From: Nanobdellota archaeon
Lineage (GTDB): Archaea; Nanobdellota; Nanobdellia; Woesearchaeales; JAHWHD01
DNA length: 35,857 nt
Reading direction: 5' to 3'
Assembly (NCBI GenBank): GCA_034722435.1
Contig: JAYENX010000023.1
Coordinates: 6,053 to 41,909, forward strand
Translations under genes and position numbers: made by a program
Shown here: in pieces, positions 4,495-30,678 of the stretch
Numbering within the stretch: the first letter of the stretch is position 1
How the letters are laid out: the number at the start of each line of letters is the position of its first letter
The notes under the pieces: generated by a model
Database searches by the model: none
Seen by the model: the letters and a program-made list of their open reading frames with translations, nothing else
Told to the model about the DNA's origin: nothing

Positions 4495-4526
4495 GTTCTT
4501 AATTCAATATAAGAATAGGTGGTTGC

Positions 4527-5376: not shown

Positions 5377-6048
5377 ATGGAAAAGGTTCAAACAGCAGAT
5401 GGAAGCACTACTTTTAGAAGCAATAGTGTAGACGAGACCTATCATAGTACTTCAGGTGCAAAAGAAGAATCTTTGAAAAAGTTTGTCGAACCTTGTCTTT
5501 CATTGATAAAAGAAAAAAAAGAAATTACAGTTTTAGATGTTTGTTTTGGGTTAGGATATAACACAGCTGCGTTACTAGATTCTGTTGATGAAAATGTTAA
5601 AGTAAATATTATTGCACTAGAGAATGATCCCGAGATTATATTAAAAGTTCAGGATATTGATGATAATACGTTTTCTAAATATGAAATAATAAAAGAGTTG
5701 ATTAAAGAAAATAAAGAAAAAATAAAGAAAAAAGAGACCATAAGTATAGATAAAGATAATATAAAAATAACACTCATTATCGACGATGCCAGAAAGAGTA
5801 TAACAGGGATTAGAGATAAGTTTGATTTGTGTTTCTTAGACCCTTTTTCTCCAAAAAAGTGCCCTGAATTGTGGTCATATGAGTTTCTGAATGACATCTA
5901 TGAAAAGATGAAAGATAAATCTGTTCTTACAACGTATTCTTGTGCTAGAGTGGTTAGAGATAATCTAAAAAAAGCAGGTTTCGTAGTTAGTAATGGACCC
6001 TGCGTTGGAAGAAGGGCTCCATCAACAATTGCGAGAAAAGGGAAATAA
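5377..6048 (+). CDS. MnmC/MnmD-like SAM-dependent tRNA U34 methyltransferase
   Basis: ETYHS..GA..ES; VLDVCFGLGYN (SAM motif I); LDPFSPKKCPELWS; TTYSCA. Confidence 0.85.
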   Translation: MEKVQTADGSTTFRSNSVDETYHSTSGAKEESLKKFVEPCLSLIKEKKEITVLDVCFGLGYNTAALLDSVDENVKVNIIALENDPEIILKVQDIDDNTFSKYEIIKELIKENKEKIKKKETISIDKDNIKITLIIDDARKSITGIRDKFDLCFLDPFSPKKCPELWSYEFLNDIYEKMKDKSVLTTYSCARVVRDNLKKAGFVVSNGPCVGRRAPSTIARKGK

Positions 6049-6071
6049 GCAGGTCAACTTAATTGACCTGC
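6049..6071. terminator. Perfect 9-bp hairpin immediately after the MnmC-like gene
   Basis: gcaggtcaa-cttaa-ttgacctgc; no U-run follows, so terminator function is tentative. Confidence 0.45.
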
Positions 6072-6169: not shown

Positions 6170-6336
6170 TTTAGGCCCAACTTCTGAGCTGTGATATTAA
6201 TCGGGCACAGATTCAAGATTGAATCTGTACCCGGGAATTCACCTCTTTTTTGAGTATAAAATAAAGAACGCCGGGGACTGCAGTGTGAGGGGTGGTTTGT
6301 AGAAGTTGGGCAGTCCCTAGCTTCTTTTATCGTGAT
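6170..6336 (-). ncRNA. Candidate structured non-coding RNA (boundaries approximate; may extend to about 6049)
   Basis: BRE/TATA at 6360-6373 points into an ORF-less region. Stems: 6175-6185/6301-6311 (11 bp perfect), 6274-6281/6310-6317 (8 bp perfect), and the 6202-6233 hairpin (14 of 15 bp paired). The loop motif recurs at 30501-30524. Confidence 0.6.
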
Positions 6337-6359: not shown

Positions 6360-6373
6360 TATATAAATGTTAC
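6360..6373 (-). promoter_or_regulatory. BRE-TATA promoter driving the candidate ncRNA
   Basis: Minus strand reads GTAACATTTATATA, identical to 15969-15982, which lies 24 nt before the ATG of the PhoU-like gene. Confidence 0.65.
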
Positions 6374-29298: not shown

Positions 29299-29417
29299 TA
29301 AGTAGAGTATAATTCAAGATATATTTAAAGATTACTATACTCGAAGATATAGTTTCAAAACTATAAGTTGAGGGACTTAATTTAAACAAAAAACTACCGA
29401 GAGGGGGGATTAAAAAA

Positions 29418-30482
29418 ATGGATTTTATCGTGGAAAACGCAATGAAAAATCAGCCTACAATGGATATGCAGGTTGGACAAGCAAATATTAAAGTTATTGG
29501 TGTCGGTGGCGCAGGTAACAATATGGTTGGATGGTTATATAGAAAAGGGATTTCAGGTGCTGAAATTATCGCATGTAACACAGACCAGCAGCACTTAAAC
29601 ATAACAGATGCTGACAGAAAATTTTTGATAGGAACAGACACTACAAGAGGTCTAGGTTGTGGTGGATTTCCTGAGAAAGGAGCAGAGTCAGCTCAAGAGA
29701 GTTTAGCAGAAGTTAAAGATACATTAAAAGGATCAGACATGGTATTCATCTGCGCAGGAATGGGTGGAGGAACAGGAACAGGAGCTGCACCAGTTGTTGC
29801 TCAAGTTGCTAAAGATACTGGAGCGATTGTAATCGGAACAGTAACAATGCCATTCAAGATTGAGAGAGCTAGAGTTGACAAAGCTGAATTTGGTTTACAA
29901 CAATTAAGACAAGTTTCTGATACAGTAATTGTAATAGACAACAATAGACTTGTACAAATTGCAGGTAACTTACCAATCCAACAAGCATTTGCAGTGGCTA
30001 ATGAACTGATTTCAACAATGATTAAAGGAATTGTAGAGATTATCGCAGTACCTTCACTTGTTAATCTGGACTATGCTGACGTAAAAGCTATTATGTCAAG
30101 AGGCGGAGTTTCAAGTATCGGTGTAGGAAGCTCAGACACAAACAGCAGAGTTGAAGAAGCTGTAAGAGGTGCTTTAACTAACCCTCTTCTAGATATCAAC
30201 TACGAAGGGTCAACAGGCGCACTTATCCATATAAGCGGTGGACCTGACATGACACTTGACGAAGTTGCTAGAGCAGGTGAACTAGTTACAGAGAGCCTTG
30301 ATGATGATGCAAATGTTATATGGGGAGCTAGAGTTGATGAAAACCTAAAAGGAAAGCTAACCGTAATGACTATCATCACAGGTGTAAAGTCTCCATGGAT
30401 ACTGGGGAAGATTGACCAGAAAAGAGCTACACAGGAAGCTGAAGCTCTGAGCCAGGAACTAGGCATCGAGATAGTAAGGTAA
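29418..30482 (+). CDS. ftsZ: Cell division protein FtsZ
   Basis: IKVIGVGGAGNN, AGMGGGTGTGAAP, IVIDNNRL, VNLDYADVK, VIWGARVD. Confidence 0.98.
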   Translation: MDFIVENAMKNQPTMDMQVGQANIKVIGVGGAGNNMVGWLYRKGISGAEIIACNTDQQHLNITDADRKFLIGTDTTRGLGCGGFPEKGAESAQESLAEVKDTLKGSDMVFICAGMGGGTGTGAAPVVAQVAKDTGAIVIGTVTMPFKIERARVDKAEFGLQQLRQVSDTVIVIDNNRLVQIAGNLPIQQAFAVANELISTMIKGIVEIIAVPSLVNLDYADVKAIMSRGGVSSIGVGSSDTNSRVEEAVRGALTNPLLDINYEGSTGALIHISGGPDMTLDEVARAGELVTESLDDDANVIWGARVDENLKGKLTVMTIITGVKSPWILGKIDQKRATQEAEALSQELGIEIVR

Positions 30483-30491
30483 AAGTTCATA

Positions 30492-30545
30492 AAAGTTCTT
30501 TGCCCTTACTTCTACAACCACCCCCAATGGAAGGCAGGGAACTTT
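30492..30545 (+). other. Stem-loop in the ftsZ 3' UTR carrying the C-rich loop motif
   Basis: 15-bp stem aaagttctttgcc(c)tt / aaggcagggaacttt enclosing acttctacaaccacccccaatgg. Confidence 0.65.
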
Positions 30546-30549
30546 CATG

Positions 30550-30580
30550 CTCCAGCCTAGCTGGAGTTTTTTTCTTTTTT
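30550..30580 (+). terminator. Hairpin + oligo-T terminator of ftsZ
   Basis: ctccag-cctag-ctggag followed by a long T-rich tract. Confidence 0.7.
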
Positions 30581-30678
30581 TTATTATTTAATTTAGAATT
30601 CTATATTGTTTCTAGATAATAATTTTATTTATGTAATTCTAAAACATATCTCTGCAAATTATTACTTAAAAATAGCAA

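Follow-up and report, generated by a model that had tools for sequence, protein, structure and literature searches.

A conserved C-rich hairpin downstream of ftsZ1 in Woesearchaeales and its sister hairpin family

The ftsZ1 locus and two C-rich hairpin loops

The DNA under study originated from a Nanobdellota archaeon of the order Woesearchaeales (DPANN), the assembly of which comprises 1.3 Mb with 33% G+C and is 94.5% complete. The window, namely, the whole stretch of 35,857 nucleotides that was analysed, corresponds to positions 6053–41909 of contig C23. It contains the ftsZ1 coding sequence (29418..30482, + strand; 354 aa), which was identified by the Pfam Tubulin/FtsZ GTPase (2e-47) and FtsZ_C (1e-30) domains. 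According to Pfam, its neighbours in the window are typical of archaea, namely, an XPD-type helicase, an alanyl-tRNA synthetase, a TP_methylase-family protein, and a nitroreductase; the second paralogue, FtsZ2, is encoded on a different contig. The ribosome-binding site (RBS) of ftsZ1, GAGAGGGGGG, is located at 29399..29408 (+ strand), and the G-rich SD noted there by the first-pass annotation includes the G-run GGGGGG at 29403–29408, 9 nt ahead of the ATG. In this genome, the 16S rRNA 3' end is the canonical GGAUCACCUCCU, the commonest Shine–Dalgarno (SD) words are GAGGU, AGGUG, and GGUGA, and the usual SD is GAGGUGA. A GGGGG word was found within −20..−2 of only 15 of the 990 genes.

The same annotation, made from the sequence alone, had described a C-rich motif shared by the 3' region of ftsZ and a second site in the window. 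Both sites were found where it had placed them, and the motif was within a hairpin loop each time. At site 1 on the + strand, the motif consists of UGCCC (30501–30505), UU, ACUUCUACAA (30508–30517), CCACCCC (30518–30524), and GCAG (30534–30537), while site 2 on the − strand consists of UGCCC (6312–6308), A, ACUUCUACAA (6306–6297), A, CCACCCC (6295–6289), and GCAG (6281–6278). In the genome-wide search that had been proposed, the 17/18-mer ACUUCUACAA(A)CCACCCC occurred in exactly two copies in the 1.3-Mb assembly, i.e., sites 1 and 2, and its reversed control had no copy in the whole assembly. When three or fewer mismatches are allowed, 0.07 motif matches are expected by chance in the window.

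The stems that close the two loops are different. The stem of site 1 consists of 13 bp (AAAGUUCUUUGCC/GGCAGGGAACUUU) including two G-U pairs, and can be extended to 16 bp with one mismatch, while that of site 2 consists of 8 bp (GGGACUGC/GCAGUCCC) and outer pairs. The earlier description of a conserved loop with divergent stems was correct. The idea of one shared motif was borne out for the loops, which are of the same kind, but the two sites were found to belong to distinct hairpin families, termed type A (site 1) and type B (site 2). When site 2 was scored with R1, the covariance model of type A, 11.2 bits were obtained (E 0.5; 6264–6314, − strand) and most stem pairs were broken; moreover, site 2 does not lie beside ftsZ.

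The type A hairpin at the 3' end of ftsZ1

In the case of site 1, the type A hairpin (30487..30548, + strand) matched R1 with 24.9 bits (E 5.5e-5 in the window) over the full model, and this was the best R1 match in the whole genome. The hairpin begins 10 nt past the ftsZ1 stop at 30482. Its stem is formed by 30492–30504 and 30533–30545, and the loop includes UUCUACAACCACCCCCAAU, whose C-rich core, CCACCCCC, occupies 30518–30525. Site 1 does not resemble an intrinsic terminator, as it is followed by CAUG and then by a separate terminator-like hairpin, CUCCAGC-CUA-GCUGGAG, with a U-run (30550..30582, + strand), which was recognised from its sequence. Because of this terminator hairpin, the type A hairpin is predicted to lie inside the ftsZ1 transcript, just ahead of its 3' end. 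The same arrangement of hairpin and terminator was observed at the same-genus locus (L013/L006).

Bacterial-style terminators with a hairpin and a U-run were seen at gene ends of this archaeon at 30550–30582 (+) and also at 6201–6236 (+), where the terminator closes a convergent methyltransferase gene (5377–6048) and abuts the 3' end of the predicted type B RNA. Separately, the word UUUCAU(A/G)NUCA recurs at many loci (e.g., L019, L026, L055, and L085) upstream of the type A hairpin, after the first T-run or hairpin; in the window, it is found at 30543–30552, just past the type A hairpin.

The conservation of type A was surveyed using 80 public ftsZ1 loci and the window, i.e., 81 Woesearchaeales loci, and public records suffice for the conclusions on this type. 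A hairpin was found 0–232 nt past the ftsZ1 stop in about 75 of the 81 loci. It was also found after ftsZ1 in the genomes G092 (same genus), G183 (same family), and G043 (other family), of which G092 and G183 are unpublished. These two genomes provided the orthologous type B loci, the alignment A2, and the flanks of ftsZ1 and FtsZ2; G092 also provided a same-genus Cdc6 site. The consensus stem of type A is cuUGCC.../...GGCAag, and the loop of 13–46 nt (median 26 nt) contains [A/U]CACCCCC[A/G]A or UUACACCACCCCC.

The 75 type A sequences were combined into the alignment A1 with a 13-pair helix, which was compared with 500 shuffles and with controls in which the partner strand was slid. The helix cells were paired in 83% of cases, compared with 69% in the shuffles and 37–46% in the slid controls. 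The double-change cells numbered 131 when 42 were expected, and none of the 500 shuffles reached this value. In the stems, 46 G-U and 23 A-C combinations were counted, which is weak evidence on the strand.

Subsequently, R1 was used to search whole genomes, one per family, with a threshold of E 0.01 or better. Matches were obtained in 50 of 61 Woesearchaeales families, nearly always as one match per genome (45 of the 50), and all 30 of the best matches examined were on the same strand as ftsZ1 and 10–170 nt downstream of it. The 11 families missed by R1 were inspected individually; six have the hairpin, two are doubtful, and three are without it. Outside the order, an R1 match was found in only one of 14 same-class genomes. 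Within the own genome, weak R1 matches on C7 and C58 were rejected, as they fall in coding-like sequence and have no convincing hairpin. A dispersed intergenic repeat or MITE was likewise ruled out by the two motif copies in the genome and by the single R1 match in most matched genomes.

No Rfam 15 model matched in the window at the gathering score, and permissive thresholds around both sites gave matches only at chance level (E ≥0.47). ARAGORN detected no tRNA or tmRNA, and the literature searches returned no account of an RNA linked to ftsZ in archaea or DPANN. Taken together, the spread of R1, the covariation, the linkage with ftsZ1, and the lack of an Rfam match indicate that type A is a real, structured element and no dispersed repeat. 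Therefore, it was concluded that type A is an order-wide, structurally conserved, single-copy, ftsZ1-linked, and uncatalogued hairpin in Woesearchaeales. The first-pass annotation would have been contradicted by relatives without the motif, by stems without covariation, or by a dispersed neutral repeat. The motif was found in the ftsZ 3' regions of relatives, covariation was found in the model made from these regions of related genomes, and the element proved to be single-copy. As the finding survives these three tests, the earlier interpretation is partly supported.

A possible explanation is that the hairpin is solely an element of 3'-end formation or stability, such as a stop for 3'–5' exonuclease or an aid to termination, with the loop composition as a by-product; the likeness of sites 1 and 2 would then reflect the common descent of two terminator hairpins. 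A run of T5 or more was found within 70 nt past the hairpin in 70 of 75 relatives and directly after it in 42 of 75, T-runs also follow the type B hairpins, and both types are predicted to lie at transcript ends. However, ordinary terminators have neither a near-invariant loop nor a gene-specific, single-copy spread over about 60 families, a large loop (median 26 nt) is poorly suited to a terminator, and in the window a separate terminator hairpin follows site 1. This explanation was accordingly considered quite improbable.

The type B hairpin and gene X

The type B hairpin RNA at site 2 is predicted at 6256..6329 on the − strand. Its inner stem is formed by GGGACUGC (6317–6310) and GCAGUCCC (6281–6274), to which outer pairs are added; the loop of 28 nt is CCAACUUCUACAAACCACCCCUCACACU, and a U-rich tail covers 6268–6256. 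Approximately 40 nt upstream of the hairpin, a BRE/TATA-like sequence, GTAACATTTATATA, is the predicted promoter of the RNA (6360..6373, − strand); it is invariant in the three family genomes of A2 and fits the promoter consensus found ahead of leaderless genes of the order. Synteny of the locus extends to G092 and G183. In A2, neither the promoter AACAUUUAUAUA nor the loop CAAACCACCCCUCACAC varies, whereas the stems of the three family genomes differ yet still pair (GGGACUGC/GCAGUCCC, GGGGCUGC/GCAGCCUC, and GGGCUCUC/GAGAGCCC).

A type B model, R2, was prepared from four seeds, namely, site 2 and the sequences from G092, G183, and G043. R2 scored site 2 at 71 bits, although site 2 is itself a seed sequence; single non-seed matches with 22–31 bits were obtained in 16 further families. 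There, a long G+C-rich stem of the GGGCUCCC type, a large loop with UUCU..AACCACCCC, and a U-run after the hairpin were observed, once per genome. In the model-fitted alignment, the type B stems were 96.5% paired, and all eight of eight pairs covaried.

In 10 of the 16 further families, the type B hairpin starts no more than about 12 nt from the stop codon of a gene referred to here as gene X. It encodes a conserved hypothetical protein of approximately 140 aa, with the N-terminus MVILFDQFNLP and the C-terminus RIGLMWLQELRKPP; examples are L146:1065–1496 (+), L160:1563–1979 (−), and, in the own genome, C25:27277–27690 (−). The protein matched nothing in Pfam or NCBIfam, and its neighbours in the ESM Atlas were annotated only as 'hypothetical protein, Nanobdellota'. 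Gene X is leaderless, with a TATA element about 25 nt ahead of the ATG and no SD. Since type B mostly follows a leaderless gene without an SD, it cannot act on its own 5' end, and any action would have to be in trans or through a protein. In the own genome, gene X lacks the hairpin, which is found instead at site 2 behind a separate predicted promoter. On the sequence evidence, type B in this family is a predicted stand-alone small-RNA gene of a sister hairpin family. The identity of the type A and type B elements is regarded as highly certain.

The loops of both types share the pattern UUCU-N(1-4)-(A)CA(A)CCACCCC. When the loops were compared, the own-genome type A loop gave 16–17 with type B loops, the same as type B loops among themselves, and 11–12 with its own orthologues. 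This closeness possibly results from gene conversion or a shared partner. It could also be argued that nothing more than recent sequence exchange or chance links the two sites, in which case the decamer ACUUCUACAA would stem from gene conversion or drift and imply no functional link of the free RNA with ftsZ. The loop values are in line with this argument, as is the fact that the decamer is not kept in the same-genus type A copy. In contrast, the looser loop pattern was found in all three family genomes and in many type A loops, so the similarity is a property of the families and no one-off event, and each element is conserved in its own right. A link through exchange or chance alone was therefore judged very improbable.

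To rank predicted targets, the RBSs of all 990 genes of the own genome were compared with the type B loop; a PKD/cadherin-domain protein was ranked first, Orc1/Cdc6 second, FtsZ2 third, and ftsZ1 13th. The RBS of Orc1/Cdc6 (C28:239–1444; L188), UUGAGGGGUGGUUUUA-AUG, is perfectly complementary over 12 nt (GAGGGGUGGUUU) to the type B loop AAACCACCCCUC. The same-genus site is a weaker match, and three other families, in which the gene is seemingly leaderless, have none. As the Cdc6 site is not kept in other families, a cell-cycle regulon of the type B RNA, connecting replication and division, is not claimed. The RBS of FtsZ2, UGAGGUGUGG, is conserved in the family and is only partly complementary to the type B loop. 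In the case of the Bro-N gene, for which the first-pass annotation had suggested an SD pairing with the motif, the sequence GGUGGUUG at 4518–4525 is indeed complementary, but its role as an SD target did not hold up, with a 1-nt spacer to the ATG, a rank of 18 out of 990, and no comparative support.

Complementarity between loop and ribosome-binding site

The G-run of the ftsZ1 RBS at 29403–29408 is the proposed partner of the C-run in the type A loop. In the order, GGGG or GGUGGU was found in the ftsZ1 RBS at 71 of 73 loci, compared with 62 of 300 neighbour ORFs (21%). The type A loop core [A/U]CACCCCC, with the forms AUCACCCCC or ACCACCCCC, is an 8/9 copy of the 16S tail AUCACCUCC with U changed to C, and due to this change it would pair with the G-run without the G-U wobble of the ribosome. 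The mean duplex energy was calculated to be −14.4 kcal/mol for loop and RBS, compared with −10.9 kcal/mol for the true anti-SD and −11.2 kcal/mol for shuffled loops. Cognate loop–RBS pairs were stronger than non-cognate pairs (permutation p 0.0006), with a difference of 0.8 kcal/mol and with statistics that ignore phylogeny.

The complementarity was further evaluated with exact reverse-complementary words containing at least 4 G/C, one in the 5'UTR (−60..−1) and the other between the stop and +200. For ftsZ1, 43% of the 77 loci had words of at least 8 nt, and 18% had words of 10 nt or more. The corresponding values were 4% and 0% for the two orientation controls, 9% and 3% for non-cognate 5'/3' pairs, and 1.1% and 0.4% for all genes of the own genome. 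The words are clade-specific and mostly lie over the RBS (GGUGGUGUAA, AGGGGGUAAAGGAAA, AAAAAGAGGGG, AAGGGGUGA, and GUGAGUAGG), and others are located further upstream, such as AGGGUGGACAC at −34 and ACACAAAGAC at −32. On the 3' side, some words fall in the type A loop and others in a second, upstream hairpin, GAUCACCCCUUUAGUCUUUGUGGUGA.

In one clade, the loop UUACACCACC matches the SD plus spacer GGUGGUGUAA over 10–11 nt, and a compensatory change was observed within this clade in L023 and L030, where the SD is GGUGGUGG and the loop is CCACCACC. G043 has two ftsZ1-type paralogues. In copy b (L009), the SD is a G-run and the type A 3' hairpin is present, while copy a (L008/L003) has no such hairpin and its SD is GGAGGAGG. 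Copy a carries a type B-like hairpin approximately 75 nt upstream, in a leader of about 190 nt with two further hairpins.

Several additional complementarities were observed along the ftsZ1 mRNAs. In 15 of 80 loci, the second hairpin, GAUCACCCCUUUAGUCUUUGUGGUGA, which is conserved, separates the ftsZ1 stop from the type A hairpin; within the first 120 nt past the stop it was seen in L045, L054, L059, L060, L065, L067, L070, L071, L074, L080, L084, and L087. Its 5' arm resembles the 16S tail, and its segment GUCUUUGUGU complements the ACACAAAGAC box at about −32 of the 5'UTR of the same gene. An 11-nt perfect complement exists in L029, L033, L036, and L037 between AGGGUGGACAC (5'UTR, −34) and GUGUCCACCCU (+13 to +24), and the latter site is a terminator-like hairpin right after the ftsZ1 stop. 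In L072, the 15-nt complement AGGGGGUAAAGGAAA spans the whole RBS. A conserved G-rich box, GUGAGGG or UUGAGGGAC, is present close to where the ftsZ1 leader is predicted to begin in the window (29350–29375), L013, and L007, and its equivalent in other clades is GAGGGUGG. Both CCCUCAC in the type B loop and CCACCC in type A loops are complementary to this box; the CCCUCAC/GUGAGGG complementarity extends over 6–8 nt in the three family genomes, as judged by eye.

For the window itself, the possible pairing is limited to GGGGG(G)/CCCCC, i.e., a run of 5–6 G-C pairs, and its loop and RBS share no complementary word that reaches 7 nt. When the 5' fragment and the hairpin were cofolded as two strands, the net energy was −2.5 kcal/mol, which was no better than that of composition-preserving loop shuffles. 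RBS–loop pairs appeared in the minimum-energy cofold structure at 23 of 73 loci, and independent loop/SD covariation events were few. In 33 of the 75 loci, a T-run was observed between the ftsZ1 stop and the hairpin, so the presence of the hairpin in the mRNA would require read-through of a terminator there. The anti-SD-like seed put forward by the first-pass annotation agrees with the order-wide, ftsZ1-specific 5'UTR/3'UTR complementarity centred on the RBS, but in this genome it comes down to those few G-C pairs.

The loop bases flanking the C-run are also conserved, with AAC or GAA after it and UUCU before it, and SD pairing leaves these unexplained. Such near-invariance of the loop beyond the needs of SD pairing in A1 (CACCCCC with AAC/GAA, and UUCU upstream) would be understandable if the C-rich apical loops were sites for an RNA-binding protein that controls stability, 3'-end formation, or translation of the ftsZ1 and gene X mRNAs. 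The candidates would be a homologue of the KH-domain protein Dim2/Pno1 or a poly(C)-type binder, and the free type B RNA would serve as a decoy. The archaeal Dim2/Pno1 homologue normally binds the 16S 3' tail, and the loop mimics this rRNA tail, AUCACCUCC. A protein site would also fit a loop that is common to two hairpin families on unrelated genes, one of them leaderless and without an SD, as well as the thermodynamically weak gain from RNA–RNA pairing. However, no candidate protein was found or tied to the elements by gene neighbourhood, and a protein site explains neither the G-run at the ftsZ1 RBS nor the clade-specific 5'UTR words, whose complementarity to the 3' region of the same gene greatly exceeds that of the controls. 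On balance, protein binding is an unlikely explanation, but one to be taken seriously.

Pairing of the loop with the RBS is instead preferred as the working mechanism. The 3'UTR of ftsZ1 would function as a built-in anti-SD element, the C-rich loop of which pairs with the gene's own G-rich RBS, and in some clades the second upstream hairpin may join in this pairing. The pairing could be intramolecular or intermolecular and would compete with the 30S subunit, and this competition would set the synthesis of FtsZ1, and perhaps the decay of the mRNA, as in the icaR 3'UTR. The stand-alone type B RNA, having the same seed, may act in trans on G-rich RBSs, with ftsZ1 and ftsZ2 among the candidates. 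Overall, this loop–RBS mechanism for ftsZ1 has an even chance of being right.

A broader and more tentative proposal is that the ftsZ1 mRNA closes on itself throughout the order, that clade-specific 3'UTR elements pair with its RBS and gate its translation, and that sister hairpins, either on a second conserved gene or freed as small RNAs as in this genome, compete for these G-rich sites in an RNA-only circuit for the timing of division. The C-rich hairpin loop would then be the universal one among these clade-specific elements. If the message does close on itself in this manner, it would be the first translational switch between the 5' and 3' UTRs to be defined in archaea, and archaeal ftsZ would have its first conserved RNA regulator.

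Little is known of how archaea control their FtsZ levels, and in DPANN archaea regulation has hardly been studied and cultures are few. An RNA element that occurs in single copy and accompanies ftsZ1 in about 90% of the sampled Woesearchaeales families offers a testable handle on the post-transcriptional control of division, and R1 and R2 are two new RNA motif models usable for annotation.

The known system with the closest resemblance is the icaR mRNA of Staphylococcus aureus, in which pairing between UCCCCUG of the 3'UTR and the SD UAGGGGG keeps ribosomes from loading and favours cleavage (PMC3868564). Similar to icaR, a C-run in the 3'UTR (CACCCCC in ftsZ1) would complement the SD G-run of the same mRNA (GGGGGG/GGGGGU in ftsZ1), the pairing would be short, about 7 bp, and a block of ribosome loading, in cis or in trans, is proposed. 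Unlike icaR, which is a bacterial single-species case, type A belongs to a division gene of archaea, is conserved across a whole order, and carries its motif on a covarying hairpin, in the apical loop, at the very end of the predicted transcript. The icaR pairing has been demonstrated, while that of ftsZ1 is predicted from sequence; if the latter is true, the 3'UTR anti-SD mechanism of the icaR type would be extended from one bacterium to an archaeal order.

In the case of type B, C-rich (UCCC) seed loops are known from the Staphylococcus small RNAs RsaA–K and RNAIII (PMC2790875), and in the archaeon Methanosarcina mazei, ribosome-binding sites are masked by sRNA41 (reviewed in PMC5867862). 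Like these RNAs, the type B RNA is predicted to display, on a stable hairpin, an unpaired C-rich loop that is complementary to SDs. It differs from them in having no homology in sequence or structure and no Rfam match, and its targets are predicted ones.

A third comparison concerns the metazoan histone mRNA, which ends in a 3' stem-loop bound by SLBP. As in that case, a conserved hairpin is found at the mRNA 3' end of a cell-cycle gene and is restricted to one gene class. This is an analogy only; the domain of life, the size, and the sequence are different. Overall, types A and B constitute a new pair of RNA motifs which, by analogy, would work most like the anti-SD element of the icaR 3'UTR and the small RNAs with C-rich seeds.
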